This document shows positions 24,099 through 54,200 of a stretch of DNA of 64,000 nt, piece by piece. The stretch comes from Candidatus Vogelbacteria bacterium RIFOXYD1_FULL_44_32 (lineage in GTDB: Bacteria; Patescibacteriota; Minisyncoccia; Phycocordibacterales; XYD1-FULL-46-19): the NCBI GenBank assembly GCA_001823065.1, contig MHTJ01000003.1:9844-73843 (forward strand). Reading direction: 5' to 3'. The number at the start of each line of letters is the position of its first letter. Within the stretch, counting starts at the first letter, position 1. The position numbers were made by a program, and so were the translations under genes. The notes under the pieces were generated by a model that had not been told where the DNA came from, made no database searches, and saw only the letters and a list, made by a program, of their open reading frames with translations.

Positions 24099-25214
24099 AT
24101 GAATTTTTTTAATCCTTTTTATTCCTTACCTCGTCGTCTGGCGGTGATTGTTGGCACCAGACCGAATTTTGTGAAGGCAGCCCCTTTCTTACGTGAAGCC
24201 AAAAATCATCCCCGTTTTGATTACACCGTTATTCACACTGGCCAGCATTTTGACCAGAATATGTCGGAAGTTTTTTTTGCGGAATTAGGAATTCCACGAC
24301 CAGATGTTTTTCTTAATCCTGGGGGGGAAAAACATACAGAAAAAATTGCCCTGATGTTTGACCAGATGAAGGATGTTTTTAAGCAACACAAATTTGCGGG
24401 GGCAATAGTTTTTGGTGATGTTAATTCTACTTTGGCTGGGGCACTGGCGGCGATCAAACATAATGTTCGCTTGGCGCATATTGAAGCTGGTCTCCGCAGT
24501 CATGACCGACGCATGCCTGAGGAAATCAATCGGGTGATTGTTGACCATCTGGCTCATTTGCATTTTGTTACGGAACAGTCGGGTGTCGAAAACCTGCGTC
24601 GGGAGGGAGTGAAAGAAAGGAAAATTCACTTGGTCGGTAATATTATGATTGAATCCCTCGAGCTTTATCGAAACAAAATTGAGGCCTCGCCGATTTTAGC
24701 TCAACTTCAGCTAAAGCCTAAAGGTTATATTTTGGTCACCATTCATCGCCAAGAAAATACCGACAGTAAACAAGCTTTGGCCGAAATCCTCCAACTCGTG
24801 GCAGGTCTTAAGAACCAGTATCAGGTAGTTTTTCCGCTTCACCCGGGGACCAAAAAACGGATTGAGGAGTATGGCTTGGCCAGTTTTCTCACCGGACTAA
24901 CTGTGATCGAACCGGTTGGTTATTTTGATTTTGTAAAATTAACTAAAGATAGTCTGGGGGTGGTCACCGACTCTGGCGGGATTCAAGAAGAGACCAGCCA
25001 TCTAGGTATTCCCTGTGCTACTTTGCGAGACAATACTGAACGACCAGTGACTCTTGAACTTGGTTCCAATAAACTTTTTCCTATTGCCGAAGCGACCAGC
25101 AGTGAGATTCTTCAGCATCTCAAACGACTAGACTTCAAGCCTGGCCTTATTCCGTTTTGGGACAGCGGTGTCAGTAAGCGAATTTTTCAGGTCCTCGATA
25201 ATTGGGAAATTTAA
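24099..25214 (+). CDS. wecB: UDP-N-acetylglucosamine 2-epimerase (non-hydrolysing)
   Basis: Motifs VIVGTRPNFVKAAP, HIEAGLRS and DSGGIQEE. Confidence 0.9.
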   Translation: MNFFNPFYSLPRRLAVIVGTRPNFVKAAPFLREAKNHPRFDYTVIHTGQHFDQNMSEVFFAELGIPRPDVFLNPGGEKHTEKIALMFDQMKDVFKQHKFAGAIVFGDVNSTLAGALAAIKHNVRLAHIEAGLRSHDRRMPEEINRVIVDHLAHLHFVTEQSGVENLRREGVKERKIHLVGNIMIESLELYRNKIEASPILAQLQLKPKGYILVTIHRQENTDSKQALAEILQLVAGLKNQYQVVFPLHPGTKKRIEEYGLASFLTGLTVIEPVGYFDFVKLTKDSLGVVTDSGGIQEETSHLGIPCATLRDNTERPVTLELGSNKLFPIAEATSSEILQHLKRLDFKPGLIPFWDSGVSKRIFQVLDNWEI

Positions 25215-32080: not shown

Positions 32081-34288
32081 ATGAAAAAACTATATGGTGA
32101 GGAGTTTTTGGCCCCAGTCCTAATTTTTGGCTTGTTTTTAGTGCCCTTTTTGGTCTTATTTGTTCCATCATCATTCTTTTTTCCTTATATTGCCGGCAAA
32201 GCCTTTGCGTTCCGACTGATTGTGGAAATTATCACGGCTGGCTGGCTAGTACTCGCGGTTCAAAGTCCAAAATACCGTCCCCACCGTTCTTATATTTTAC
32301 TCGCCGCCACTATTTTTATTGTCGTTCTGGGGGTGGCCATGGTGGCGGGCGAAAATCCGTATCGCAGTTTTTGGAGCAACTTTGAACGGATGGAAGGACT
32401 AGTGACCCACCTTCATCTTTTCTTTTATTTTTTAGTGGCTACTTCGGTTTTGCAGACTAAAGCTATTTGGCACCGCCTATTCCTAACCAATGTGGTGGCC
32501 AGTATTTTGGTCGGTGTGTATGGTTTTTTTCAACTGGTGGGAGCGATACCGATTAGACAAGGTGGGGGTCGTCTTGATTCAACCTTGGGTAATGCCGCTT
32601 ATCTAGGAACTTATATGTTTTTTTTGTTTTTTGTCACGTTGTATTTATTAATCAATGATTGGCAAAATCGCAGTTGGCGTTATTTCTATCTAGGAGCGAT
32701 GTTGTTGCAGACAATTATCCTTTACGAAACCGCCACCAGAGGCGCTATTCTTGGTTTTATTTTTGGCCTGCTCCTGGCGGCGGGTCTGGGGGCCTGGTCG
32801 GAGCGGAAAAATATTTTTGTCCGCAATATTGCCCTCGGCACCTTAGTCGGACTCGCCCTACTAGCTGGCGGTGTTTGGTTGGCCCGCGATTCTGCTTTTA
32901 TTAAAGGTAATCCAGTGTTGTCTCGTTTTGCCTCTATGTCTTTAACTGAAGGGACAGTCAAATCTCGGTTTATGATTTGGAATATTTCTTGGCAGGGGGT
33001 CAAAGAGCGACCAATTCTGGGCTGGGGTCAAGATAATTTCCAATTTGTGTTTACCAAGTATTATAATCCGCAGATGTATGCCCAGGAGCCGTGGTTTGAT
33101 CGCTCGCATAATGTTTTTCTCGATTGGTTGGTGGCGGCGGGGGTGGTGGGACTGGGCGCTTATCTATATTTATTTTTTAGTGCCACTTATGTCTTGATTA
33201 GGCCTAAAAATAAAATATTTAGCTCGGCCGAAAGAATAATTTTACTTGGTTTGTTGGGGGGCTATTTTCTCCAAAATTTGGTTATTTTTGATAATCTCAT
33301 TAGTTACGTTTTGTTCTTTAGTCTTATCGCTTATATTCATGTTCGTTCCGCTGAGCATAATAAAAATATTATGCCGTATGAGTTGGATCGTGAATCAATG
33401 GTTAAATATGCACCGGCGGTTGGAGCGGTGGCAGTAGTGTTGTTTGGCCTAGTTTCATTTTTGGTGGTGGTTCGTCCGGTTTTAGCATCGTCTAGTTTAA
33501 TCAATGCTCTGCGGGCCACTGGCCAGGGTGACTTAAAAACTGCCACTGAGTCATTTGCCCAGGTCTATCGTTATCATACTTTTGCGGATCGGGAGACGTC
33601 TGAACAAGCCACTTCGGCTTTGACTAGTGCCATTGTTTATCGCAATCCTGATACGGCTAGTATCACTCAATTAAGTGCAGTGGCTGAAGCGGGGCTAAAA
33701 AAACAATTAATTTCGGCTCCCAAAGATGTCCGGTTGCACATTTTTTATTCCGAATTGTTGCAATTGACCAATCGTCCACAGGAGGCTCTAGCTGAACTTG
33801 AGCTGGCTCGCACTTATTCCCCCAAAAAACAAGATATTTTGTATCGGTTGGCTTACTTTTCAGCTAGCAATGGTAACTTGAAAGAAGCTTTACGCTATGC
33901 CCGAGAATCTTATGAATTACTGCCGGCCAATGACCAAGCGGCCAAGATGTATGGTTTGATGGCTATTCAGACGGGTGATCAGGCATTAGCCAAAACCATC
34001 CTATTGCCTCGCTTTGGCACTTTAGCTGTCGATGATGATAATTTTATTAATTATTATTCCAAAATAAAACGTTATGATTTGGTCGCCGCCATCTGGGGCC
34101 AAAGAACCAAAAATAGTCCCAATGATATTAATGCTTGGACTAAATATGCCATGTCTTTATATGCTATTGGAGAGCGGGCCGAAGCGGTCAGTGTTTTAGA
34201 ACAAGCTATAGTTGTTAATCCACAATTCAAGACCGAAGCAGACAAAATTATCGAAATTATTAAAGCGGGCCGAGCGGAGGTTGGTTAA
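32081..34288 (+). CDS. O-antigen ligase (Wzy_C) family membrane protein with C-terminal TPR repeat domain
   Basis: About 12 TM helices, the O-antigen-ligase signature loop (SHNVFLDWLVAAGVVGL), and a C-terminal ~250 aa of TPR-like repeats. Confidence 0.75.
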   Translation: MKKLYGEEFLAPVLIFGLFLVPFLVLFVPSSFFFPYIAGKAFAFRLIVEIITAGWLVLAVQSPKYRPHRSYILLAATIFIVVLGVAMVAGENPYRSFWSNFERMEGLVTHLHLFFYFLVATSVLQTKAIWHRLFLTNVVASILVGVYGFFQLVGAIPIRQGGGRLDSTLGNAAYLGTYMFFLFFVTLYLLINDWQNRSWRYFYLGAMLLQTIILYETATRGAILGFIFGLLLAAGLGAWSERKNIFVRNIALGTLVGLALLAGGVWLARDSAFIKGNPVLSRFASMSLTEGTVKSRFMIWNISWQGVKERPILGWGQDNFQFVFTKYYNPQMYAQEPWFDRSHNVFLDWLVAAGVVGLGAYLYLFFSATYVLIRPKNKIFSSAERIILLGLLGGYFLQNLVIFDNLISYVLFFSLIAYIHVRSAEHNKNIMPYELDRESMVKYAPAVGAVAVVLFGLVSFLVVVRPVLASSSLINALRATGQGDLKTATESFAQVYRYHTFADRETSEQATSALTSAIVYRNPDTASITQLSAVAEAGLKKQLISAPKDVRLHIFYSELLQLTNRPQEALAELELARTYSPKKQDILYRLAYFSASNGNLKEALRYARESYELLPANDQAAKMYGLMAIQTGDQALAKTILLPRFGTLAVDDDNFINYYSKIKRYDLVAAIWGQRTKNSPNDINAWTKYAMSLYAIGERAEAVSVLEQAIVVNPQFKTEADKIIEIIKAGRAEVG

Positions 34289-34430
34289 CCGAGCCGAGCA
34301 CTAATGATTTAAATGGTGCTCGGGTGCTCAACCCAGTTGACTTTTATTGCTTAATTTGCTAGACTGGAAGGGTGAGTGTTGTAATCTAATTCTAGGTTGC
34401 GACTCTAAGTGCAATTTAAATGTCTTACAT

Positions 34431-34452
34431 AAAAACCCCTTCGGGGGTTTTT
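34431..34452. terminator. intrinsic terminator hairpin (AAAAACCCC-TTCG-GGGGTTTTT), bidirectional
   Basis: A perfect 9-bp stem with a tetraloop, flanked by an A-run and a T-run. Confidence 0.6.
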
Positions 34453-34607
34453 ATGTTCGTAAATATTGCATTTAGGTGTAGTTGCTATATCATAAAGTAG
34501 TGGGTTGCCGGTACAAGTGGCCGGCGGCTGCACTCACATTAAGACATTTAGCCTTTGGAGTTCCGCCCCGCCGGCCTCTTGTGCCCACTGGGCAACCAAA
34601 CTAAACT
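34453..34607 (+). ncRNA. candidate small structured RNA bounded by two intrinsic terminators (strand uncertain)
   Basis: A ~155-nt GC-richer non-coding segment with several hairpins (GCCGG-N9-CCGGC; GTGGGTTGCC/GGCAACC; AATGTCTTA/TAAGACATT) sits between terminators at 34431-34452 and 34608-34645. No known RNA family was recognised by eye. Confidence 0.3.
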
Positions 34608-34645
34608 AAAAGTGCGACCGCCTTCGGCGGTCGCACTTTTAGTTT
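34608..34645. terminator. strong intrinsic terminator (AAAAGTGCGACCGCC-TTCG-GGCGGTCGCACTTTT)
   Basis: A 15-bp perfect stem with a tetraloop, flanked by A and T runs. Confidence 0.7.
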
Positions 34646-34776
34646 CTAAATAGTATAAATATTTTTTAACCCTGTTATATTTTTTAGATCAAATTATAAA
34701 ATTATTTTTAAAATTAATTAAAATTAAAATAAAAATTTAAAAATAATTAAATATAAAAAGTTTTTAAATTTTTTAG

Positions 34777-34785
34777 TTATCCACA
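34777..34785 (+). promoter_or_regulatory. perfect DnaA box TTATCCACA inside a ~280-bp extremely AT-rich region (34650-34930)
   Basis: An exact match to the 9-mer consensus, followed by a degenerate box TGTGGTAAA. The surrounding A/T tracts resemble a DNA unwinding element. Confidence 0.35.
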
Positions 34786-34933
34786 TTTTTGTGGTAAAAA
34801 ATATTGTGAGCAAGACATATTTGCTTGATAATGTAATTAACAGTTTGTAACAACAAAATTTTTCATCGACAAAATTTCCTAACAAAGGTCGAAGGTTGTT
34901 ACAAAAACTTTTAAAAATAATTTTTTCTAAACC

Positions 34934-35044
34934 ATGGCTAAGAAGAAAAAAGCTGCCAAGAAAAGCGCAAAGAAGCGCCCAGCAGCAAAAAAGAAGGCAA
35001 CCAAAAAGACTGCCAAGCGCCGCACTGCAAAGCGCCGCAAATAG
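34934..35044 (+). CDS. 36-aa Lys/Ala-rich highly basic small protein (histone H1-like / nucleoid-associated), absent from the ORF track
   Basis: The sequence is MAKKKKAAKKSAKKRPAAKKKATKKTAKRRTAKRRK. The stop sits 12 nt before a strong terminator and an AT-rich promoter-like region lies upstream. Confidence 0.5.
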   Translation: MAKKKKAAKKSAKKRPAAKKKATKKTAKRRTAKRRK

Positions 35045-35055
35045 TCTTTACCAAA

Positions 35056-35087
35056 CACCCCGCAAGCGAAGCTTGCGGGGTGTTTTG
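35056..35087 (+). terminator. intrinsic terminator (CACCCCGCAAGC-GAA-GCTTGCGGGGTG + TTTTG)
   Basis: A 12-bp stem with a 3-nt loop and a T-run, immediately after the small basic ORF. Confidence 0.7.
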
Positions 35088-35128
35088 AGTTAGATTTGAT
35101 TTAGATTTCATTACTAAAAATTACAGTT

Positions 35129-35155
35129 TTCAAACCGCCCATTTTATGCTAAAAT
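35129..35155 (+). promoter_or_regulatory. candidate secA promoter (TTCAAA -35; extended -10 TGcTAAAAT)
   Basis: Lies 26 nt upstream of the secA ATG. The spacer is ~15 nt, slightly short. Confidence 0.3.
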
Positions 35156-35180: not shown

Positions 35181-37691
35181 ATGAGTATTTTCAAGGCCAT
35201 ATTTGGTGACAGTGACGCCCGTGAGGTCAAAGCTATCCAGCCCGTGATTACTAAAATCAATGCGTTGGAAGCGACTTTTGCGGTCCTGTCGCCCGAAGAA
35301 TTAAAAAATAAGACTGCCGAGTTTAAACAGCGCGTCGCTGCTGGAGAAACTCTCGAACAAATTTTACCCGAAGCTTTTGCAGCGGTACGCGAAGCTTCAA
35401 AGCGGACTTTAGGCCAGCGCCATTTTGATGTGCAGTTGGTGGGCGGAGTGGTGCTGGCTCGGGGTGGTATTGCCGAAATGCGCACTGGTGAAGGAAAAAC
35501 TTTAGTGGCGACCGCACCGGTTTATTTACATGCTTTAACAGGTAAGGGGGCGCATGTGGTGACGGTCAACGATTATTTGGCGCGTCGTGATGCCGCGTGG
35601 ATGGGACAAATTTATAACGCCCTTGGTTTTTCGGTGGGGATTGTCAATCAACATGAGAGTTTTCTTTATGACCCCACTCATATTGAAAAAGATCACGAAC
35701 GTGATGATGTTGCTTCTTATAAAGTCGTTTATGAATTTTTAAAACCTTGCGCTCGTCGTGATGCCTACTATGCTGACATTACTTACGGCACCAACAATGC
35801 TTTTGGTTTTGATTATTTACGTGACTATTTGGCGCACAGTGACCAGCAGTTGTCGCAACGGCGAGCCAAAGACGAGCGTCACCACTTTGCGATTGTGGAC
35901 GAGGTGGATTCAATTTTAATCGACGAATCGCGCACCCCACTTATTATTGCTGGTCCCGCCGCCGAAGCGGAAAATCTTTATGGCACTTTTGCTAGTCTGG
36001 TGGCTAGTTTTAAAGAAGATGAAGATTACACCGCTGACCATAAATTTCACGCGATCACGGTCACTGAGCGTGGTATCGAAAAAACCGAGCAAGCGCTAAA
36101 GGTGGATAATATTTATACTGACAAGGGTATCAAATATGTTCATCATTTGGAAACAGCTATTCGGGCCAAGGCCCTCTACGAACGGGACAAGGCCTATGTG
36201 GTGAAAGATGGCGAGGTTATTATTGTCGATGAATTTACGGGGCGTCTTCAACCAGGGCGACGCTGGTCCGAGGGTTTACATCAGGCCGTCGAGGCCAAAG
36301 AGGGGGTGGCTATAAAAGAGGAGTCGCGCACTTATGGTTCCGTGACACTCCAAAACTATTTTCGCTTGTATCAAAAAATAGCGGGGATGACTGGGACGGC
36401 CAAAACCTCGGCCGAAGAATTTGAAAAAGTTTATGGTCTCGATGTTATTTCTATTCCCACCAACCAAACCCCAACCCGTCTCGACCATCCTGATTTTATT
36501 TTTCAAACCGAAACGGGCAAATTTAAAGCGATTGCGAAAAGGGTGCGCGATCTGTACGATAAGGGCCAGCCGGTCTTGATCGGTACGGTATCAATTGAAA
36601 AAAATGAATTATTGTCAGCTTATCTGAAAAAAGAGGGAATACCACACGAAATATTAAATGCTAAAAATCATGAGCGAGAAGGGGAAATTATTGCCGCCGC
36701 GGGCAAGAAAAAGGGGGTAGTCATTGCCACCAATATGGCTGGGCGCGGAGTGGATATTAAGCTGGGGGGGATTTCGGCCACCGCCGAAGAAATGGCCGAG
36801 GTTAAAAATCTCGGTGGTTTGTTTGTGCTCGGTACCGAGCGTCACGAAGCCCGCCGGATCGACAACCAGCTCCGCGGGCGCTCGGGGCGCCAAGGTGACC
36901 CAGGGGCGACCCAGTTTTATATTTCCCTCGAAGACTCGCTGATGAAAGTTTTTGCTTCGGACCGTGTCAAAAATATGATGGGGCGTTTTGGTATACCCGA
37001 AGACGAGCCCATTCAAAATAGTATTGTGTCGCGAGCAATTGAAAGCGCCCAGTCACGGATTGAAGGGATGAACTTTGATACCCGTAAACATCTGTTGGAA
37101 TATGATGATGTGGTCAATTTTCAACGCGTGACCATGTATGGCCGGCGCGAAGATGTGCTTTTGGGAGGTAATGCTGAAATTGCCGATTTTCTGGAGCGGG
37201 CCACGATTGAGCTTGGCCTCTCGGTCGAGGAACAGCGCGCGGTGAGCGACCAATTTACCTCGAAGGTGGCTTCACTTGGTCAGGAATATGTCGGAGCAGT
37301 CCGCGAGCTTATTTTGCAGGTGATTGATATGTATTGGATGCAACACCTCGAAGCGGTGGAATATATGAAAGGGTCGGTGCGCTTGCGCGCCTATGGTCAA
37401 CGCGACCCACTGGTGGAGTTTAAGCGTGAGGGTTTGAAAATGTTTAAGGATTTAGAAGCGTCCATTTTTTCGGATGTTATTCGTTTATTTCCCAATGTGG
37501 GCACCGATTTGAAACCACCCGAAGTAGTAAATTTACAGGAAGTCCATACCGATATTACCGCTTTACCAGGCACCGACCCAATTAATGCTGGCGATGTTCC
37601 CACTCCAACCACTAGTGAGCCAAAAATCGGTCGCAATGACCCTTGCCCGTGTGGCTCGGGTAAAAAATATAAAAAGTGTCATGGGCAGTAA
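35181..37691 (+). CDS. secA: preprotein translocase ATPase SecA
   Basis: Walker [16 protein letters not shown]-like motor motifs, N-terminus [17 protein letters not shown], and the C-terminal zinc finger [14 protein letters not shown]. Confidence 0.95.
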
Positions 37692-38337: not shown

Positions 38338-38366
38338 AAAAAATCGCGCCCGGCGCGATTTTTTGT
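38338..38366 (+). terminator. intrinsic terminator (AAAAATCGCGCC/GGCGCGATTTTTT)
   Basis: A GC palindrome hairpin followed by T6. Confidence 0.6.
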
Positions 38367-38374
38367 GTGGATAA
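38366..38374 (-). promoter_or_regulatory. perfect DnaA box (TGTGGATAA, = TTATCCACA on the minus strand)
   Basis: An exact 9-mer. It is paired with an inverted copy at 38455-38463 flanking a 45-nt palindrome. Confidence 0.35.
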
Positions 38375-38407
38375 CTTTTAAAATATAATTCAAAAAAATA
38401 TCATAAT

Positions 38408-38452: not shown

Positions 38453-38454
38453 AT

Positions 38455-38463
38455 TTATCCACA
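38455..38463 (+). promoter_or_regulatory. perfect DnaA box TTATCCACA
   Basis: An exact 9-mer adjacent to the palindrome. Confidence 0.35.
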
Positions 38464-38525: not shown

Positions 38526-41500
38526 ATGCCAACAAGTTACGGAAAACTGTTACAGACAATCCGTTATTATGTGTTGGTTTTGAAGCAAATAATTTTTAAA
38601 TTTGCTTTTTCAAAGTGGATTAGCAAAAAAAATATCCTAGGAAAAATAAGGGTATTTGGAGTAGTGGTGATTATCCTAGCCAATATTTTTACTCCACTTA
38701 CCGCCAGTGCCGCTATTAATCAGCAAATAAACTATCAGGGTAAACTTACTACTACGGCTGGCGCCGCGGTCACCGACGCTACCCGTAGTACTGTCTTTTC
38801 ACTTTACACCGCTTCGTCTGGGGGCACCGCTATTTGGACCGAAACTCAAAGTGTCTCCACGACTGATGGCTTGTTTAGCGTGATGCTCGGTTCAGTGACT
38901 TCGCTAGCGACAGTCAATTTCAATCAAACTCTCTATCTGGGGGTCAATGTGGCCAGTGACGGCGAAATGTCACCCCGCAAAATTATCGGCGCTGTGCCCG
39001 CTTCTTTTTATTCTAGCGATTCCGATAAACTCGATGGTTTGACCGCCTCTGATTTTCTGTATGCCACTACCACCAATGCCACCGCCACTATTACCTCTTT
39101 AAATGTTGGCAATTCTACGACCACCAACGCGACCACTACCAGTTTATATGTTGGGTCAACTGCCACCGTGGCTGGATCTTTGGTTGTATCAGGAACAGCC
39201 ACTAGTACTTTTAATGGAGGTATAAATCTTCTTGGGACTAATGCTACTTTGACTATTGGCAACAATCTGGCTGAAAATAATTATCTTAAATTCAACTATT
39301 CGTCGACGGGTGGTGGTGATGTGACCGGCCAGCTCGAAGGGGTAGACCAAATGTCCTATGGGTTTAACAATCGGGCTTACTACGGCGGCACGGCGGGCGT
39401 AGCCAGCGGTCGGACTTTGTATATTCTTGATCGCGTGGCCGGGCTCAATCGGGGTGGCTTCAACGCCTCTGGCGATTTCTATGTTGGCCCATCCACTACC
39501 AACTATGGTCTCAATGTCAAAGGTCCCAATTCTGGCGTTACCGGGCTCACTGTTTTGGGAAACGGATATGTGGGCATTGGTACTAGTACTCCAGATACAG
39601 ATTTGGCGGTTTTTGCTAGTACCGGCACCACTACTTTAAAGATTCATAATTCTGGCACCGATTTAAACGCTGTCTTGCAATTTATGGAAGATACAGTGGG
39701 ACAGGGAATGGAACTTCTCTACGATGCCAATGGTAATGATCTAACCATTCGGGGTATTACTGAACAAACACCAATTTTTACGGCGGAACGTACTGGCCGA
39801 GTGGGTATCGGCAAGGCCAACCCTTCAACTACATTGGATATTGTGGGTACTGCTTCCTCAACTGGTTTACAAGTAAATGGCAGTGGAACAATCGCGGGGA
39901 GTTTGACTTTGGGTACTGCCCTAGGTGTTGCCAGTGGTGGTACCGGCCTTACTTCCTACACTTTGGGTGATGTTATTTATGCTTCTGGTACAGGGACACT
40001 GGCTGGCACTTCTACCGCCAATTTGAAAACCACTTTAAGTTTGAACAATGTCGAAAACACGGCCCTGTCCACTTGGGCGGGAACAACCAATTTGACAACG
40101 TTAGGGACAATCGCCACCGGCCTCTGGCATGGCACGGCAATTGAAGATGCTTACATTACCAAAACTGGTGCTTGGACTGGTACCTTTGATGGTCAAGAAG
40201 GTAGTTATTATTTAGACGCCACGAACCTCACCAACTTTGGTACACCGTTCTACACCTATTTCTCCGCCACCACCACCGATGCTCTGACTCAAGGTTCAAC
40301 CAACAAATATTACGCCGACTCTTTGGTTAATGCTTACATTCATGCTTCATCAACTATCCCTAAAACTTACACCGCCAACACTTTCACCGGCGCCAATACT
40401 TTCAACAGCACTTTCACTATCGGCTCCTTCACTGGCCCATTGCAAGCCGCCAACGGCGTCGTCTCCGCCACCACTTCCATCGGCGTCGTCTACGGTGGCA
40501 CCGGTCTCACTTCCGCTCCGGCCTACGGCAACCTGCTGGTTGGTAATGCTTCCAGTGGCTACACTTTGACGGCGACTTCGTCACTCAACCTCGCTATCTC
40601 CGACACTGTTGGTACCTTGAGTGTGGCCAAAGGGGGGACGGGCGCCACCACATTCGGTCAAGGTTGGATATATTCCGATGGTGGCACTGGTGCGCTCGCT
40701 GCTTCAACTTCACCAACGGTCAATTATATTACCGCTACCTCGACCATCGCCACTTCCACCTTTGCTGGTGGCCTCGCGGTGGAGACGAGTGGTTTGGTAT
40801 ATGACTATTCGACCAATAAGGTTGGTATCGGTACAGATAGTCCCACCAATGAACTGCACGTAAATGGCAATGCCCGCATTGGTGAGCTCGGCTTTATAGC
40901 CAACTGGCCGGTGGTATGGTTCAACGCCTACTATGACGATACTGACGCACGGGCAGAGTTTACCACCAGCGATTCTGCTTTTGCTTTGTATCATGATCAA
41001 ACCAATGACTTGTTCAAGATTTTATATAACGCAGTAGGCACGGCTGGAAACCAGGTGAGCTCATCAAACGTTGCATTGTCAGTAAATACATCTGGCAATG
41101 TCGGCATTGGTTCTACCACCCCTGAGGCAAAACTCACCGTTCAAAATACTGGCACGGGTAACTCGTTCATCGTCGAAGACCAAGCCGACGATACCTCACC
41201 TTTTGTCATCAATGCCAGTGGCAATGTGGGTATTGGCATGACTGCTCCCGGCTATAGCCTAGAGGTTTCCAATGCGATTGTCTCATCTTTGGCTAATGGT
41301 TCTGGTCACCCTTATATCGGTATTCGGTCTTCTGGAGCTTCAATGTGGTATTTGTCTGACAATGACACAACCAATGACTTTCATCTCGGTACATCTCTCA
41401 ATGATACAAAGTTTGTCGTTGACTTTTCAACAGGCAACGTCGGCATCGGCGACTCCACTCCCGACTATACCCTCGATGTCACCGGCAACGCTCGATTCAC

Positions 41501-44500
41501 TTCGCTTGTTGATGCTGCCAACTTTGTCGCCACTTCCACCACCGCCACCTCCACCTTTGCTGGTGGCCTCGCGGTGGAGACGAGTGGGTTGGTGTATGAC
41601 TACTCCACCAATTTTGTGGGTATCGGTACAGCTTCGCCATCTCAAGAATTGGAAGTTATCTCCTCGGCAAGTAATAGTAATGTTTTTGTTGTTTCCGATT
41701 CCGCGGGTACTGATACCAGTATTTTCCGTATCTTTGAAGTATCTGGTGGCGGTGGGCTGGCCTCACTTTATAGTGCGTCTGATGCAGAAGCGATTAGGCT
41801 AAGTGCCACCGGTGACTCGTGGATTAACACCGACAATGATCTGGGTATTGGCACCACTTCACCCCTGGCTCGCCTCGATGTCGTCGGCTCTCTATCTGGT
41901 ACTACACCGCTATTTCAAGTTTCTAGTCTGGGCGCGAGCTATGCCACCACGACTCGAATGATAATTGATTCGAGTGGTAATGTGGGGATCGGTTCATCCG
42001 CTCCTTCTGAATTGCTCACTATTCAAGGAGCAAGTGGTGGTATATCGGGTGTTACAGCCGATACGGTGAGAGTTATGATCCATGATACCTCTAATGGTGG
42101 AACTTGGGATATTGTAAATCCGTTTGCTTCTTTTGCTTTTTCGCGGGCTGACACTAGCGGCGAAGGCGCTGGAATAGCCGCGGAAATTGGAGCCGTCCAT
42201 AATGTCTCTAGCACTGGTGGTAATGTGCGAATAGGATTTTTTACCGCTCCAACAACCTCTGGGACTATGTTGGAAAGAATGAGTATTATGGATGCTGGTG
42301 AGGTGGGTATAGGTACCACTACTCCAAGTGCTAAATTGACTGTTACATCAGATACCGCCAGTGATACTTTTGCTTCTTTGTATCTTGGAGCTATTGAAAC
42401 AGCCAGTGACACCTATCTGACTGGTCTATTTAAATCTGGTACAACCAATGGAGCTCCAGATGTGCGGATAGTAGACAAGGATACCAGTCAAGCTCGCGCT
42501 GCTTTACAGATTCAAGGTAATAATGGAAGTACCGAAATCGCTTTCTTTGGGGCCGGTGGTAATGTCGGCATCGGCACCACTACTCCCCAAAATATTTTGA
42601 CAGTAAATAGTGCTTACAATGTGAGCAATGATTCATTGGATGTGAGAATTAACAATACGACCGATAGTTATAATCGGGGGGCGGGTATCCTTTTCTCTGA
42701 CGCCTATCTTACTACTGGGCGGATAATGGGTATGCGTAGTCGGGGGGCATCACTAGCTGCCGACCCACTTTATGGCAGTATGTTTTTGGATTATCGCAGT
42801 AATTTTCATCTATTTAATAATTTAGCTGGTACGACGGAATTTATGCGGATTACTTCAGCGGGCAACATGGGGATTGGCACTACCACACCCCTTGCCCGTC
42901 TTGATGTTGTCGGCTCTCTATCCGGCACTACCCCACTCTTCCAAGTTTCCAGTCTGGGGGCCAGCTATGCTACGAGCACTAAATTTATAATTGATTCCAG
43001 TGGTAATGTCGGCATCGGTACTACCACCCCCGGCACTTCACTTGGTGTCGCGGGGGCTGGAGTCTTCGGGGCCAATGTAACAGCCAGTGTTTTCAATGCG
43101 ACCTCCACCACCGCTACCTCCACTTTTGCGGGGGGTTTGGCGGTGGAGACAAGCGGGTTGGTGTATGACTATTCAACCAATTTTGTGGGAATTGGAACCG
43201 CTAATCCTCATGGAGCTTTAGAAGTCGATGGTAGTATATATACAAGTCGTGAAAATAGAGGCATCTTCTTTAATAATTTTTTCAATGGTACTAATTACAC
43301 AACCATTAATAACGGAGAATCTGGCGTTTTAAATTTCGGTTCTTCTGGGGAGTTAAATTATAGTACCGCCGCTTCTCGCTCAGCTGGGGCAACTGGTTCG
43401 CAGACAAATATATTTACCGTTCTTAATACTGGGAATTTTGGTATCGGCACCTCCACTCCCGGTACCCAACTTGGTGTCGCTGGCGCGGGTGTCTTTGGTA
43501 CTTATGTCAATGCCAGCATATTTAATGCGACTTCTACAACCGCCACCTCCACCTTTGCTGGTGGGCTGGCAGTAGAAACCAATGGACTGGTTTACGACTA
43601 CTCCACAAATTTTGTGGGGGTTGGGACGGCTGCCCCTCAAACAAAATTCAACGTTAATACAGCTAGTGCTTCTCTAAGTTGGAATGGTATGTTTAGAAAT
43701 ACGACTCATCAGTCGGCTGTTGGTCCTGGAGTGGGAGTAAAGTTTCAGCTGGGTGGTGCCGACACTCCTTCTGAATTGCAAAAATGGGCGGGTATTGCCG
43801 GGGTCTCAGAAGTAGGCACTTATGAACAAACAGTCGCTCTAGCCTTTTATACTCGTTTGGAAGCTAGTGCGGCTGATGCGACTGAAAAAATGAGAATTAC
43901 AGGATCGGGCAATGTCGGCGTGGGTACCACCACCCCCTTAGCTCAACTCACCGCTTCGTCTACTAGTAAGATTGGTCTTATTATTGATCAGCGTGGAACT
44001 TCTGACATTGCTCAATTTCAAGATGCTGGTACTTCAATTTTTGTGATTAAAGATGGTGGCAATGTCGGTATCGGTACCACTACCCCGGGGTCGCTTTTGT
44101 CTATCGGCAACACCGGCACCGGGCCTATCAACCTGTCCGCTACCGCCACTTCCACCTTTGGTTTTGGCATCAACCTCCGCGGCGGTTGTTTCTCGATTAA
44201 TGATTCCTGTCTCGCCAGCGGTGGGTCGGGGACCCCGGTGGGTAGTAATGGAAATATTCAGTTTAATAATTCCGGTTCTTTTGGTGGGGAAAATGACTTA
44301 AACTGGAATTCTACTTTGGACATCTTACAAGTTGCAACATCTACTGGTGGTCAGATACATGTCGGATATATAAATAACAGTAATATCACAGGTACAGCAG
44401 CCGCTAATACCTATATATCGTCCGGCCATAGTTTTCTTTCAAACGGAACAAATGCGGCAACTATCTATCTTGCGGTTGGAGGCGCCGACACTTCGATTGG

Positions 44501-45899
44501 GGTTGGCCAAGGAGGAGATGGTGGAGTTGTAAATATGGTTCAGGGGGGTAGTAGTAGTGATACTAACGGTGCTGATGGCACAGTCAACATTGGTCTATCA
44601 ACCGGTAACAAAAATGCCACCGTCAATGTTTATGGGACCATCAATACTATGTTTAGAAATACTGCTACCACTAATGGCGTCTGCCATTCTGGTACTGATC
44701 TAGATACTACTGACACAACTAATACCTACTCTTTAGTTGCCTGTTCGGCGGCACCGGGTGACATCGCCGAATTTTATCCTGTATCTGACGAGGATATAGA
44801 AGCTGGCGATATTGTTGCACCATCACTAGATGAATTTTTGTATAGTGCCGAAGGTAGTGATCCTTATACTGGAGTTGTTAAATCTCTAGGCACTCAAGAT
44901 GTTTCAATAATGGACAAGGCTACTAAAGAGACGGGTTTTGTTGGGGTTGTATCTACTGGTCCATTCCAGACTTTTGGTAAGGATATTTTGAAAGCTAGAG
45001 GCAAAGACAAATCTCGAGCTATTGCCCTAGTTGGTCGGGTGCCAGTAAAAGTAAATGGCGAAGGGGGAAATATAAAGCCCGGTGACCGCATTACTATTTC
45101 ATCCGAACCAGGCATTGGGATGAAGGCTACTACCACTGGTATGACTTTGGGTGTGGCTCTCAATTCTTTTGCTGGCGAAAGTGTCAGTGATACTGGCGAA
45201 GTTATGGTATTTATAAATATGTCTTACGCCAAGATTTCCGATAGTGTCAGTGACGGTGATATTACTGAAGCTTTGTGGCAGATAGACAACACAACTGGAG
45301 ATATCAAAGCTCTAGCCTCGCTTGATTTAGGTGGTAAATCACTAAAAAACATTTCTTCACTTTCTAGTATTACTGGTAAATGGAGTATTAGTGAAGATGG
45401 CAAGCTGGTTGTTGACGAAATAGAAACCAACAAGCTGACAGTCAAAAATGGGATTACGACCCAAGATAAAACCACTGGTGATTTTTATTGTATATATATA
45501 GACAATGGCACTCTTGAAACTGAACAAGGTAGGTGTGAAGATTTGGTTGTAGAAGTAGTGGCTGAACCAGAGCCTGAGCCAGAACCACCGGCCGGTGATA
45601 GCGGTACTGGTGGCGAAACAGGAGACGGAGACGGTGATGGTGACGCTGGTGGTGATATCGGGGGCGAAGAAAATTCCAGTGGTACAACAGAAGAGGGTGG
45701 AAGCACAAGCGGTTCTGCTGGAGAAGAATCGACAGGAGACGAGGAGGCTACTACTGGAGGAGAAACTGGTGGTGGGACAGACCCCGGCGCAAGTGAATCG
45801 GATGTAGGAACTTCTGAAAGTGGAGAGCCATCAGTCGAGTCGGGTGGCGATAGTCAGACCGGTGATTCGAGTGGTGGGGAAACTACTAGTGGTGTGTAA
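38526..45899 (+). CDS. giant (2457 aa) secreted/surface fibre-like protein with Thr/Ser/Gly-rich beta-repeat arrays and an acidic low-complexity C-terminus
   Basis: It has an N-terminal hydrophobic anchor or signal. There are at least 4 copies of ATSTFAGGLAVETSGLVYDYSTN(F/K)VGIGT, many (S/G)GNVGIGTTTP...L(T/D)V motifs resembling phage tail-fibre-like repeats, 2 copies of a ~45-aa LARLDVVGSLSGTTPLFQVSSLGASYAT block, and a C-terminal EPEPEPEPPAGDSGTGGETGDGDGDGD tail. Confidence 0.8.
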   Translation: MPTSYGKLLQTIRYYVLVLKQIIFKFAFSKWISKKNILGKIRVFGVVVIILANIFTPLTASAAINQQINYQGKLTTTAGAAVTDATRSTVFSLYTASSGGTAIWTETQSVSTTDGLFSVMLGSVTSLATVNFNQTLYLGVNVASDGEMSPRKIIGAVPASFYSSDSDKLDGLTASDFLYATTTNATATITSLNVGNSTTTNATTTSLYVGSTATVAGSLVVSGTATSTFNGGINLLGTNATLTIGNNLAENNYLKFNYSSTGGGDVTGQLEGVDQMSYGFNNRAYYGGTAGVASGRTLYILDRVAGLNRGGFNASGDFYVGPSTTNYGLNVKGPNSGVTGLTVLGNGYVGIGTSTPDTDLAVFASTGTTTLKIHNSGTDLNAVLQFMEDTVGQGMELLYDANGNDLTIRGITEQTPIFTAERTGRVGIGKANPSTTLDIVGTASSTGLQVNGSGTIAGSLTLGTALGVASGGTGLTSYTLGDVIYASGTGTLAGTSTANLKTTLSLNNVENTALSTWAGTTNLTTLGTIATGLWHGTAIEDAYITKTGAWTGTFDGQEGSYYLDATNLTNFGTPFYTYFSATTTDALTQGSTNKYYADSLVNAYIHASSTIPKTYTANTFTGANTFNSTFTIGSFTGPLQAANGVVSATTSIGVVYGGTGLTSAPAYGNLLVGNASSGYTLTATSSLNLAISDTVGTLSVAKGGTGATTFGQGWIYSDGGTGALAASTSPTVNYITATSTIATSTFAGGLAVETSGLVYDYSTNKVGIGTDSPTNELHVNGNARIGELGFIANWPVVWFNAYYDDTDARAEFTTSDSAFALYHDQTNDLFKILYNAVGTAGNQVSSSNVALSVNTSGNVGIGSTTPEAKLTVQNTGTGNSFIVEDQADDTSPFVINASGNVGIGMTAPGYSLEVSNAIVSSLANGSGHPYIGIRSSGASMWYLSDNDTTNDFHLGTSLNDTKFVVDFSTGNVGIGDSTPDYTLDVTGNARFTSLVDAANFVATSTTATSTFAGGLAVETSGLVYDYSTNFVGIGTASPSQELEVISSASNSNVFVVSDSAGTDTSIFRIFEVSGGGGLASLYSASDAEAIRLSATGDSWINTDNDLGIGTTSPLARLDVVGSLSGTTPLFQVSSLGASYATTTRMIIDSSGNVGIGSSAPSELLTIQGASGGISGVTADTVRVMIHDTSNGGTWDIVNPFASFAFSRADTSGEGAGIAAEIGAVHNVSSTGGNVRIGFFTAPTTSGTMLERMSIMDAGEVGIGTTTPSAKLTVTSDTASDTFASLYLGAIETASDTYLTGLFKSGTTNGAPDVRIVDKDTSQARAALQIQGNNGSTEIAFFGAGGNVGIGTTTPQNILTVNSAYNVSNDSLDVRINNTTDSYNRGAGILFSDAYLTTGRIMGMRSRGASLAADPLYGSMFLDYRSNFHLFNNLAGTTEFMRITSAGNMGIGTTTPLARLDVVGSLSGTTPLFQVSSLGASYATSTKFIIDSSGNVGIGTTTPGTSLGVAGAGVFGANVTASVFNATSTTATSTFAGGLAVETSGLVYDYSTNFVGIGTANPHGALEVDGSIYTSRENRGIFFNNFFNGTNYTTINNGESGVLNFGSSGELNYSTAASRSAGATGSQTNIFTVLNTGNFGIGTSTPGTQLGVAGAGVFGTYVNASIFNATSTTATSTFAGGLAVETNGLVYDYSTNFVGVGTAAPQTKFNVNTASASLSWNGMFRNTTHQSAVGPGVGVKFQLGGADTPSELQKWAGIAGVSEVGTYEQTVALAFYTRLEASAADATEKMRITGSGNVGVGTTTPLAQLTASSTSKIGLIIDQRGTSDIAQFQDAGTSIFVIKDGGNVGIGTTTPGSLLSIGNTGTGPINLSATATSTFGFGINLRGGCFSINDSCLASGGSGTPVGSNGNIQFNNSGSFGGENDLNWNSTLDILQVATSTGGQIHVGYINNSNITGTAAANTYISSGHSFLSNGTNAATIYLAVGGADTSIGVGQGGDGGVVNMVQGGSSSDTNGADGTVNIGLSTGNKNATVNVYGTINTMFRNTATTNGVCHSGTDLDTTDTTNTYSLVACSAAPGDIAEFYPVSDEDIEAGDIVAPSLDEFLYSAEGSDPYTGVVKSLGTQDVSIMDKATKETGFVGVVSTGPFQTFGKDILKARGKDKSRAIALVGRVPVKVNGEGGNIKPGDRITISSEPGIGMKATTTGMTLGVALNSFAGESVSDTGEVMVFINMSYAKISDSVSDGDITEALWQIDNTTGDIKALASLDLGGKSLKNISSLSSITGKWSISEDGKLVVDEIETNKLTVKNGITTQDKTTGDFYCIYIDNGTLETEQGRCEDLVVEVVAEPEPEPEPPAGDSGTGGETGDGDGDGDAGGDIGGEENSSGTTEEGGSTSGSAGEESTGDEEATTGGETGGGTDPGASESDVGTSESGEPSVESGGDSQTGDSSGGETTSGV

Positions 45900-51285: not shown

Positions 51286-54200
51286 ATGGTGTCTAACCAC
51301 TCTAAGCGGTATAAAGGCCGATATTCATTTCTAACTTACATCAAGCCAGCTTTCCTAGTGCTGGCTTTTTTATTCTTTTTCCAATTAATCACGCCAGTCG
51401 CCCTGGCTCAAGACGGGACGGTGGAGGAATCATTGCCGCTTCCTCCGGCAGAGGAGCCAGCACCCGTTCTTCCGCCGGCCGGAGGTAGTATCAGCGACCC
51501 CGAAGCTCCAGCCGAACTGGCAGCAGTTGCGGAGGAAGACAACCTAGTCGCTTTGTCACTTACTGTCACCAGTCGTTCGCCGGTAGACTTAGGCAAGCCA
51601 CCAGTGGGAACGGGCTTTAAAATTTCGGCCGACACCTCGGACGGCTCGCTGGCATATGAGTTTCCCCTGACTCTCCCTCCTGGCCGCCAGGGTTTGGCCC
51701 CGGAGCTGTCTTTGCTCTATTCTAGCCGTCCTACTAGCGCTACCTCTTTATTTGGTTACGGTTGGACGTTGTCGATTCCTTTTATCGAACGAAAAAATCT
51801 TCATGGTTCGGATCGGCTGTACGAGGAGACAGATTTCACTTCTTCCTTAAGTGGTGACTTGGTGGCCTTAGGCGGCGAGACCTATCGCGCCAAAGTTGAT
51901 GAGGGGGAGTTTCTGGTTTATGTTTTCCGCGATAATGCTTGGACAGTGACAGACAAAAGCGGCATGGTCTACCGCTTCGGCCAGACCGCCGCCGCCCGTC
52001 AGGATGATGCTGATCATCCGACCCACGTCTACAAATGGATGCTCGAGGAAGTTCGCGATCTAAACGGAAATTATGTTACCTATCGTTATGCCAAAGATTC
52101 CAACCAAATTTATCCGGAATCAATAACTTATACTCACCATGCTGATACGGCTGGTCTATATTCAATACGCTTCATCAAAACTCCACGTGATTATCCCGTC
52201 ACCTCTTGGGCGGCAGGTTTTAAAGTTGTCACCAATCATATTATAAGTGAAATAGTTGTTGAAGTCGGAGGAGGGTGGACGAGGAAGTATTCTTTCGCCT
52301 ATACCCAGCGAGACAACCAGAGTCGGTCATTGCTAACCTCAATCATCGAATGGGGAAATGACGGTTCAAAAATCATCTCTTTACCACCGACCACCTTTAC
52401 TTATCAAGTATCAGCTAAGGCCTGGGTTGAAAACAGCCGTTGGACTTTGCCAGTGTCTCTTGTCGGAGACAACTACGAAGACACGGGCGCGCGAATTGCC
52501 GACATTAATGGCGATGCTTTACCCGATATTATAACTAATAATAATGGCTCCTTTCTTAACACTGGTTACGGTGACTGGGACAGAGCCGGCCCCGAGTGGA
52601 CCCTGCCTGTGGCGTTGACGAAACCAGATGTGGTCCACCCTGGAAGTATGTTGATTGACGTTAATGGTGATGGATTGATTGATATTGCCCAAAGTCGGGA
52701 TGGTGATGAGGACCCGGATATTGTCTATTTTAATACTGGCCACGGCTGGGTGACATCGTCGACCACGGTTCCGGTCTATTTTGCGACGCGAAACGGCAGT
52801 GATAACGGAGTCCGGGTTGCCGACATTAATGGCGACGGTCTGCCTGATTTGTTGCGTTTTCATGCTGGCGACGGCGCATTGGGTAATCGTGTTTATATCA
52901 ATAATGGTTCCGGCTGGAGCGAAGATCGGTCCTGGGTTTTACCGGAGCCGACCCTTGCCGGCGACGGCCAGACTGATTTGGGCACGCGTTTTGGCGACGT
53001 TAATGGTGATGGCCTAGTCGATATCCTTCGCAAAGATGAAAGCGTTAGTAAAGTCTATTTCAATACTGGTCACGGTTGGGAACTGGCCTCTGCTTGGGTT
53101 ATTACCGCCGAGGAATTTATGAACGACGGTGGTGATCGAGGCACGCGAGTTTATGATGTCAATAGTGACGGATTTGACGATCTTGTGAATAGTCAGGCGC
53201 CAGGTGATGTTGGTGTTTATCTCAATACGGGTAGTCCTTCTAACGACTGGACTTTAGACATGAGCTGGCGTATTCCTTTCAGGTTGGTTGATTATCTTCG
53301 CGACGGGGGCCGTTACGTTGATCCGGGAACGCGGTTGGTGGATTTAAACGCTGACGGACTCCTGGACATACTTCAGTCACGATCAAGTGGCCCGAACCAG
53401 GTTTATTTTCAAGCTGGCCCACAGCCTGATCTCCTTCAGAGTGTGACATTTAGTCGGGGCGGTGGGGCGAACATTACCTATCTCTCCAGCACCTTTTATC
53501 ATCCAAATGGTCTTGGTCGTCTCAATCAAAAGTTGCCGTTTCCGATGATAACGGTTAGTACGATTACCGAGCACGATGGCCTCGGCGGTAGTGCCACTAC
53601 CGAATATAGTTATAAAAATGGCGAATATTATCACGAGAACATTCTTGACCGAAAATTTGCCGGCTTTGGCCAAGTGGAAAAAACCGATGCCATGGGCAAT
53701 ATTACTAAAACCTATTTTCACCAAGGTAATGATTCTGATTCTGGTCGCGGGGAATTTGAAGATCATTTTAGTAAAATTGGGCGAATTTATCGAGTAGAAA
53801 AATATGATTCAGCTGGCAATTTATTGACCCAAGAAATTAGTCGGTGGGGGAGGGTGGCCTTGGCTGTCAGCGCTGGCCTTGATCGATCTTTTGTTCCATT
53901 GTTAAACAATATAAAAATGACTTACGATGGCGACAATAGTCACCGTGATGTGGCTGAAGCCTATACTTATGATAATTTTGGTAATTTAGTTCGGGCCGAA
54001 AATTATGGTGAAGTGGTGGCTAGTGACGATGGAAGTTTTAGTGATCTGGGTTCTGATAAAACAACCAAGATTTTGAGTTATGTCACAAACTCAACAACGG
54101 GCATATTGGGGTTAGTAAGGATGGAAGAATTGAGAAATAACAATGGAGCCAATGTGGCGGTCAAAAAATATTATTATGATAATCTTCCCATTGGGGCAGT

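Follow-up and report, generated by a model that had tools for sequence, protein, structure and literature searches.

A candidate lysine-rich micro-protein gene with a DnaA-box-like promoter site upstream of secA in Patescibacteria

We analyzed a 64-kb stretch of contig MHTJ01000003.1 (hereafter the window, to which all coordinates refer) around a very small gene that would encode a lysine- and alanine-rich basic peptide. The best relatives of the SecA protein encoded in the window came from uncultured Patescibacteria (Paceibacterota, Vogelbacteria, Wildermuthbacteria, and similar groups; at most 68% identity), identifying the source organism as a patescibacterium. The peptide gene is flanked on the same strand by genes for an O-antigen-ligase/TPR protein (32081-34288) and for SecA (35181-37691). 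The original prediction had described a clean open reading frame (ORF) of 36 aa at this site, running from ATG to TAG, and we recovered exactly the same coordinates and translation. The features of the unit and of its downstream boundary are as follows.

34646 to 34775 (130 bp), plus strand: extreme A+T-rich tract (6.9% G+C), between the terminator of an upstream candidate small RNA (RNA-B, described below) and the conserved box
34776 to 34785, plus strand: DnaA-box-like site GTTATCCACA, a 10-mer with an exact match (9/9) to the consensus TTATCCACA
34804 to 34832, plus strand: predicted peptide-gene promoter (promoter scan), with a -35 element TTGTGA (34804-34809), a 17-nt spacer, and a -10 element GATAAT (34827-34832)
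34839 to 34933 (about 95 nt), plus strand: predicted 5' untranslated region (folding), a 5' hairpin followed by an A/U-rich unstructured linker to the ATG
34934 to 35044, plus strand: peptide gene, ATG to TAG, 36 aa, MAKKKKAAKKSAKKRPAAKKKATKKTAKRRTAKRRK
35053 to 35086, plus strand: predicted intrinsic terminator (sequence and folding), an A-tract, a G+C-rich hairpin of 13 to 15 bp, and a short T-tract
35127 to 35155, plus strand: predicted secA promoter, TTTTCA, 17 nt, TG-n-TAAAAT, marking the downstream boundary of the peptide unit
35181 to 37691, plus strand: secA (NCBIfam NF009538 SecA, 1013.7 bits), a neighbor outside the unit

Lysine accounts for 16 of the 36 codons. The peptide has 21 Lys or Arg residues and no acidic or aromatic ones, and its 58% Lys+Arg and 25% Ala give it a Lys/Ala-rich, basic, low-complexity composition like that of H1-like proteins. 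At pH 7 the peptide would carry about 20 net positive charges (+20), and its computed isoelectric point sits at the calculator's ceiling of 12. Across all six frames of the window, this is the sole ATG-started polybasic small ORF. It is overlapped on the plus strand by a 65-aa ORF (34896-35093) that starts with TTG and passes through the terminator hairpin, and its antisense strand contains hydrophobic ORFs of 43 and 57 aa.

The comparative set consisted of 80 genome loci, obtained with a single query, and 80 metagenome loci, all anchored on SecA (160 in total, 1.04 Mb; individual loci carry an L number). At least 41 of the 160 loci contain a small Lys-rich ORF at the same genomic position, beginning M-A-(A)-K-K and lying on the secA strand upstream of secA or of an hpf-secA pair. 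Copies were located shortly upstream of secA, on its strand, in 13 genome loci and 21 metagenome loci. We also scanned the 1.04 Mb in six frames without reference to position, keeping ATG-started ORFs of 12 to 80 aa with at least 50% Lys+Arg and no Asp or Glu. This unbiased scan returned 51 ORFs: 34 known copies, seven further members (L082, L087, L114, L120, L122, L126, and L027), and about 10 unrelated background look-alikes. The window ORF has thus not arisen by chance.

The family peptides vary between 14 and 58 aa, with a median of about 22 aa. Composition and codon usage were tabulated for 33 family ORFs (785 codons). All 33 begin with ATG, followed by Ala (31 members) or Pro (2 members) and then a Lys/Arg run. 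Lys (366 codons), Ala (167), and Arg (122) dominate, the remainder being Thr, Ser, Pro, Gly, and Val; on average the peptides are roughly 62% Lys+Arg and 21% Ala. Bulky hydrophobic residues are nearly absent, and Asp, Glu, and aromatic residues do not occur at all. Positional conservation is confined to residues 1 to 5, with only M1 and K4/K5 near-invariant. The peptides of L017 and L089 contain internal tandem repeats, which indicates that the peptide has grown by slippage. The claim that this is a real, unannotated gene for a small basic protein was borne out by the recurrence of the ATG-GCN start, the Lys frame, and the downstream terminator (34 copies inspected for start and stop, 14 for the terminator).

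Codon-level signals, checked frame by frame, were specific to the Lys frame. Acidic codons and stops numbered 0 and 0 in frame 0, 84 and 7 in frame +1, and 192 and 22 in frame +2. Since GAR is one transition away from AAR, the total absence of GAR codons points to selection on charge. GC dinucleotides, which stem from the Ala and Arg codons, were strongly phased (75 in phase 0 and 23 and 20 in the other phases). In every one of 34 loci, AAG made up a larger share of the Lys codons than it did in the neighboring secA (0.66 versus 0.38), and the longest A-run averaged 5.9 nt in the family ORFs against 8.2 nt in simulated ones. The choice of AAG over AAA shortens A-runs, as expected if a translated frame avoids slippery poly-A. 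On these patterns, the Lys frame is the coding frame and is under selection.

That the real gene is read in another frame, either as the 65-aa ORF or as one of the antisense ORFs (for example, a type I toxin), seems scarcely credible. Such ORFs do exist in the window, and the antisense of any Lys/Ala tract yields Phe/Leu/Ala-rich, membrane-like peptides. The ORFs in the alternative plus-strand frames and on the antisense strand are inconsistent between loci, however, in start, length, position, and openness. Stops interrupt the +1 frame in L003, L008, and L021, and the TTG start of this frame is not conserved, in line with the earlier view that the 65-aa ORF was the less plausible one; the antisense ORFs differ from locus to locus in start codon, length, and position. 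Their openness is trivial because the tract is T-poor and its antisense A-poor, and the conserved promoter is on the plus strand.

A noncoding, purine-rich small RNA with an incidental ORF would also account for some of the features. T-poor sequence is open in several frames by default, the 5' region is long and partly conserved with hairpins and a recurrent GGTCG, two other candidate small RNAs adjoin, and there is no Shine-Dalgarno (SD) motif before the peptide ATG. SD-like motifs precede only 6 of the 44 long ORFs in the window, however, so their absence is normal for this genome and no argument against translation. Leaderless or SD-independent initiation thus seems common in this genome. 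Several window genes have a TATAAT-like element 7 to 10 nt before the ATG (e.g., at 24099 and 25235). The small-RNA explanation would not predict a conserved ATG at the 5' edge of the purine tract or an in-frame stop that always comes ahead of the terminator. Neither would it predict the zero count of Glu (GAR) and Asp (GAY) in the 785 codons of frame 0, each a single transition from AAR or AAY, the concentration of G at the third position of Lys codons seen in all 34 loci, or the phasing of GC dinucleotides. We regard it as very unlikely. Translation in vivo can instead be inferred from the comparative and codon evidence, and 34934-35044 is very probably a real translated gene.

Transcription of the peptide gene is predicted to start from a promoter with an unusually regular layout. 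An A+T-rich, promoter-like tract of about 280 bp had been proposed upstream of the ORF; the interval 34646-34933 measures 288 bp with 17.4% G+C, and the promoter was found inside it. Within the window, exact matches are limited to two. In the genome set, 10 of 13 family loci carry one exact box on the strand of the peptide ORF, 100 to 230 nt ahead of it (in L035, a second exact copy lies downstream), compared with 3 of the 67 other genome loci. The box was also present in 15 of 21 metagenome family loci, for about 25 family loci altogether. Box and -10 element are separated by 38 to 41 nt in 21 of the 27 box-bearing copies measured, and by 41 nt in the window. Most copies share a common arrangement of GTTATCCACA, 18 nt ending in an A-tract, TTGTnn, 17 nt, and GATAAT; the TTGTnn-17-GATAAT part stands at the same distance from the box in L014, L017, L081, L083, L091, L094, L098, L105, and others.

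Relative to the predicted transcription start, the box in the window lies at about -64 to -55, which is a position typical of class I activators. The presence of an exact box at a fixed 18-nt distance from the promoter suggests that transcription is probably set by DnaA, or by another reader of the box, and would hence be coupled to replication status. A/T tracts comparable to the one at 34646-34775 precede the box in L012, L014, L017, and L003, and the tract may act like an UP element or curved DNA. It also resembles a DNA-unwinding element. A DnaA box beside a tract of 7% G+C led us to consider an origin of replication, which we rejected: the cumulative GC skew rises monotonically through the window, and between about 18.9 and 45.9 kb the plus strand carries every ORF of 200 aa or more. 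Pfam scans of the nearby genes revealed no replication functions.

A plus-strand box, TTTATCCACA (38454-38463), also precedes a 2,457-aa ORF (38526-45899, plus strand) and lies 41 nt from a TAGAAT -10 element. The identical 41-nt spacing at the peptide gene and at this gene suggests that a single factor reads both boxes as part of a small regulon. The same intergenic region contains a DnaA-box-like site on the minus strand (38366-38375) that overlaps the T-tail of a bidirectional terminator. A second giant ORF on the plus strand spans 51286-57192 (1,968 aa). No Pfam domain was found in the first 1,000 aa of the 2,457-aa ORF; the giant ORFs may encode surface proteins of a cell of the candidate phyla radiation (CPR).

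The predicted leader folds into a hairpin that pairs 34844-34854 with 34895-34905 and has an inner stem of 34866-34870 with 34888-34892. A GGTCG motif (34887-34891) falls within the inner-stem region. Across loci, the distance from the -10 element to the ATG ranges from 48 to 178 nt. Of 33 family loci, 25 have GGTCG(A) in the leader, where it coincides with the predicted transcription start or precedes the ATG by 34 to 56 nt. Its position and pairing partner vary, so that it is sometimes in a loop and sometimes paired; no consensus structure around it could be established, and no consistent function for it was found in the 25 loci.

At the other end of the unit, the terminator arms are AAACACCCCGCAAGC (35053-35067) and GCTTGCGGGGTGTTT (35071-35085), separated by a GAA loop and followed by T-GAGTT. 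The arms form 13 G+C-rich pairs, or 15 with the A/T extension. A stem of 12 bp located 12 nt after the stop had been predicted, which was approximately right (13 to 15 bp and 8 to 10 nt by our measurement). The T-tail contains only four T residues in the window, and a simple terminator scan missed the hairpin because of this short tail. In 14 of 14 loci inspected, the stop is followed after 5 to 50 nt by a hairpin set between an A-tract and a T-tract. An extended -10 element (TGnTAnnAT), read by eye in the sequences of these loci, lies between the terminator and the secA ATG in 11 of 14. Judged by this arrangement, the peptide gene is an autonomous transcription unit, insulated from secA by a strong predicted terminator.

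Other genes can intervene between the peptide ORF and secA. In about a dozen loci, the two are separated by hpf, by a GIY-YIG gene, or by about 1 to 2 kb. A gene for the hibernation factor HPF/RaiA (PF02482) comes next, followed by secA, in 10 family loci (L035, L114, L120, L027, L095, L104, L124, L154, L130, and L122), and the GIY-YIG gene occupies this place in L015. The block in L027 also includes a gene for S-adenosylmethionine (AdoMet) decarboxylase, an enzyme of polyamine synthesis. L122 appears by eye to encode the same decarboxylase and possibly a spermidine synthase. Adjacent hpf and secA genes are a general feature of these bacteria (39 of 160 loci), and in the window hpf has been lost from the site; the location of the peptide gene beside hpf may therefore be incidental.

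The layout of the locus raises the possibility of a cis-acting leader that controls secA, either through a terminator governed by translation (attenuation) or through stalling of the nascent chain as in SecM, MifM, or RAPP-type peptides. Most of the 41 loci have the unit upstream of secA and on its strand, and a short ORF rich in a single amino acid, a terminator 8 to 25 nt after its stop, and a downstream gene together resemble a classical attenuator. Genes for protein localization have been reported to be preceded by arrest peptides (PMC12992588). Such a role is nevertheless unlikely because secA has its own extended -10 promoter past the terminator (11 of 14 loci), and whole genes (hpf, GIY-YIG, AdoMet decarboxylase) intervene in about a dozen loci. 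The minimum free energy and centroid folds contained only the terminator and no competing antiterminator, although no dedicated search for alternative structures was made. None of the 33 members has a signal, transmembrane, or hydrophobic segment or an RAPP- or SecM-type arrest motif, and secA has no link to lysine supply or metabolism. Taken together, we find a leader function very improbable and retain an independent peptide gene as the better description of the unit.

Two candidate small RNAs are encoded directly upstream of the peptide gene.

about 34366 to 34455, plus strand: candidate small RNA RNA-A, directly upstream of RNA-B, with a predicted promoter at 34337-34365 and its own terminator
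about 34499 to 34594, plus strand: candidate small RNA RNA-B, a G+C-rich hairpin of 95 nt that has a -10 element of its own and a terminator at 34603-34645

RNA-B has invariant CACUCAC and UUGGAG sequences near its apex, and 16 of its 20 predicted pairs show compensatory changes. With a covariance model, 40 of 160 loci were found to contain it, among them loci without the peptide gene; most of these copies lie no more than about 2.3 kb ahead of secA. The 5' end of RNA-A, GUGAGUG, is the complement of the invariant CACUCAC of RNA-B; L006 and L106 have a compensatory UACUCAC/GUGAGUA change in this pair. Ahead of its terminator, RNA-A (34417-34427) is also complementary to the variable apical loop of RNA-B (34538-34548). 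This second complement covaries with the loop, is 7 to 13 nt long (13 nt in L083 and L017, 11 nt in the window, and 10 nt in L098), and always lies 90 to 165 nt upstream. Given the non-nested order of the two pairings, RNA-A and RNA-B would be either two trans-pairing RNAs or a single RNA of about 280 nt with a pseudoknot. Rfam yielded no family at the gathering threshold in the window or in eight loci, and relaxed E values gave only terminator look-alikes. In lying upstream of hpf/secA, RNA-A/RNA-B are positional analogs of the raiA motif RNA of Bacillota and Actinomycetota (PMC10861870, PMC12968392). The order of the elements differs, however, and the Rfam searches gave no raiA-motif match.

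The peptide family could not be assigned by homology. The window peptide matched no Pfam or NCBIfam model, and the best hit of 10 family members against the profile libraries was to Rv3852_fam (E = 0.3; one member). Against all PDB chains, phmmer returned only a phage endolysin linker (E = 0.13) and the family profile returned nothing; NCBIfam models and PDB chains of ribosomal proteins likewise gave no match. Nothing scored in a word-indexed search of 5.8 billion proteins with a 14-member profile, and an exhaustive phmmer search of 1.84 billion representatives produced zero matches. Short, compositionally biased sequences defeat these tools; the lack of matches is therefore weak evidence and means "not assignable" rather than "unrelated." For the same reasons (a median of about 22 codons and low complexity), the family would have been missed by gene callers as well as by homology tools. 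The literature that we searched contained no polybasic micro-proteins of CPR bacteria, no gene-encoded oligolysine of this kind in bacteria, and no such promoter in Patescibacteria. Our comparison indicates a peptide family that is new, unannotated, and clade specific in Patescibacteria (Paceibacteria/Parcubacteria-like).

What the peptide does can be approached from what is conserved. Length and sequence drift freely while the charge is kept, so the peptide most likely acts as a free, unstructured polycation. The conserved position, promoter, and terminator and the selection on the reading frame, together with the lack of a fold or motif, likewise suggest a micro-gene whose product works via charge alone. 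Binding of such a polycation to nucleic acid (DNA or rRNA) by charge is the function that we favor, with moderate confidence. In this scenario, a sigma-70-type promoter with the upstream DnaA-box-like site would transcribe the gene, tying peptide supply to replication status. The 5' hairpin would stabilize the mRNA, and an A-rich leader without an SD motif would precede the translation start. The peptide would then bind chromosomal DNA or rRNA electrostatically and neutralize phosphate charge, much as histone H1 tails, protamines, polyamines, and the smallest polybasic ribosomal proteins do.

A nucleoid- or ribosome-associated role, as suggested in the original prediction, remains our best guess. 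Leaning toward the nucleoid are the DnaA-box promoter, with its suggested replication-coupled supply, the H1-like Lys/Ala/Pro composition, and the fast-changing repeat number. Leaning toward the ribosome are the hpf adjacency, the Ala/Lys-rich tail carried by parcubacterial uS19 (PMC9297842), and the precedent of polybasic ribosomal proteins discovered by cryo-electron microscopy (cryo-EM).

A stricter version of the ribosomal role would make the peptide a dedicated, stoichiometric ribosomal protein in a defined rRNA pocket, the lineage equivalent of eL41, bTHX, bL37, or bS22. Among these, eL41 and bTHX are tiny polybasic ribosomal proteins, and small proteins of this kind that only cryo-EM uncovered are an established class. 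The family gene is directly upstream of hpf in 10 loci, and the strong promoter, 5' hairpin, and terminator suggest high expression. Parcubacterial ribosomes are remodeled, and their uS19 has the Ala/Lys-rich tail (PMC9297842). The 4-fold length range and the lack of any residue pattern beyond M-A-K-K are, however, unlike known small ribosomal proteins. The ribosomal chains in PDB and NCBIfam gave no match, the gene is missing from the secA region in many close relatives, and the hpf adjacency may be incidental given how general hpf-secA is. A dedicated ribosomal protein is thus rather unlikely.

The composition also resembles that of oligo-Lys/Arg cell-penetrating peptides. As the organism is a patescibacterium, and many Patescibacteria are episymbionts, the peptide could in principle be exported or released as a cationic antimicrobial or cell-penetrating peptide that acts on the host or a neighbor of an episymbiotic CPR bacterium. 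The product lacks a signal peptide, a hydrophobic or amphipathic face, and any precursor or leader architecture; no transporter or immunity gene adjoins its gene, and the hpf-secA synteny explains the proximity to secA. Export is highly improbable in our assessment, and we continue to favor an intracellular polycation that binds nucleic acid.

The most far-reaching form of this idea is an oligolysine "mini-protamine" of Paceibacteria. Its DnaA-box-dependent supply would follow replication, and it would serve as the main counter-ion for DNA and/or rRNA, supplementing or replacing polyamines and nucleoid proteins, within a conserved module that includes the two pairing small RNAs, HPF, and secA. 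We offer this full picture only tentatively and consider it unlikely as a whole.

Several observations weigh against the proposed gene, its regulation, or its function. The T-poor tract makes open frames cheap, so the case rests on the comparative and codon-phase evidence and not on the ORF itself. An exact look-up of 12 family peptides in a collection of 15 billion proteins showed that none had ever been called as a gene. Pfam, NCBIfam, PDB, and the large protein databases gave no homology to a characterized DNA- or RNA-binding family. Many close relatives (e.g., L001, L004, and L006) have no peptide gene near secA, and in L001 the site is occupied by murB; the gene is therefore either dispensable or located elsewhere in those genomes. 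The box is a putative DnaA site by its match to TTATCCACA, the textbook DnaA-box consensus. Because the same box and spacing are found before the 2,457-aa gene, the regulator may be unrelated to replication.

A large part of bacterial diversity consists of CPR bacteria, or Patescibacteria. Their cells are tiny and their genomes pared down, and the organization of their DNA and reduced ribosomes is poorly understood. In the sequences compared here, the peptide family clearly shows purifying selection on charge, a conserved promoter, and a conserved neighborhood. If the peptide is indeed a free counter-ion for nucleic acids, it would represent a gene-encoded factor of very small size associated with chromatin or ribosomes, for which the literature searched offered no bacterial counterpart, and would illustrate concretely that "dark" micro-proteins can be functional. 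With its DnaA box at a fixed position, the promoter would further provide a testable handle on cell-cycle-linked transcription in organisms that so far cannot be cultured by themselves.

The unit resembles several known systems in part. As in SecM and other arrest peptides and in attenuators such as hisL and pheL, a short ORF rich in a single amino acid is followed by a terminator and lies upstream of another gene, here secA. The peptide unit differs in having no export signal, arrest motif, or (in the predicted folds) antiterminator, and in that secA has its own promoter and genes can intervene. The promoter is similar to DnaA-controlled promoters (dnaA, sda, and nrdAB) in its exact TTATCCACA box at a fixed position upstream of a sigma-70-type promoter. 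It departs from them in its single box at about -60, where DnaA binding is putative, in its polycationic micro-peptide product, and in the occurrence of the same box before the unrelated 2,457-aa gene.

Among proteins, the smallest ribosomal ones (eL41, bTHX, bL37, bS22, and bL34; 24 to 46 aa) are likewise mostly Lys/Arg and easily missed, and they bind rRNA by charge. They are conserved in sequence and length within lineages, whereas the peptide family spans 14 to 58 aa with no fixed motif. Protamines and polyamines provide another analogy, as small unstructured polycations that presumably function, like the peptide, by charge density rather than by fold. Protamines, however, are eukaryotic, Arg rich, and often Cys containing, and polyamines are metabolites, whereas the peptide would be a bacterial gene-encoded oligolysine. 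The H1-like bacterial proteins and tails (Chlamydia Hc1/Hc2, Pseudomonas AlgP, the mycobacterial HU/Hlp tail, and Rv3852) share with the family a Lys/Ala/Pro-rich, low-complexity, strongly basic composition, a rapidly evolving repeat number, and, by analogy, a presumed electrostatic binding and compaction of DNA. These proteins are 100 to 350 aa long or form tails on a folded DNA-binding domain; the family described here would achieve a similar effect with free peptides, whose median length is about 22 aa (36 aa for the window peptide).

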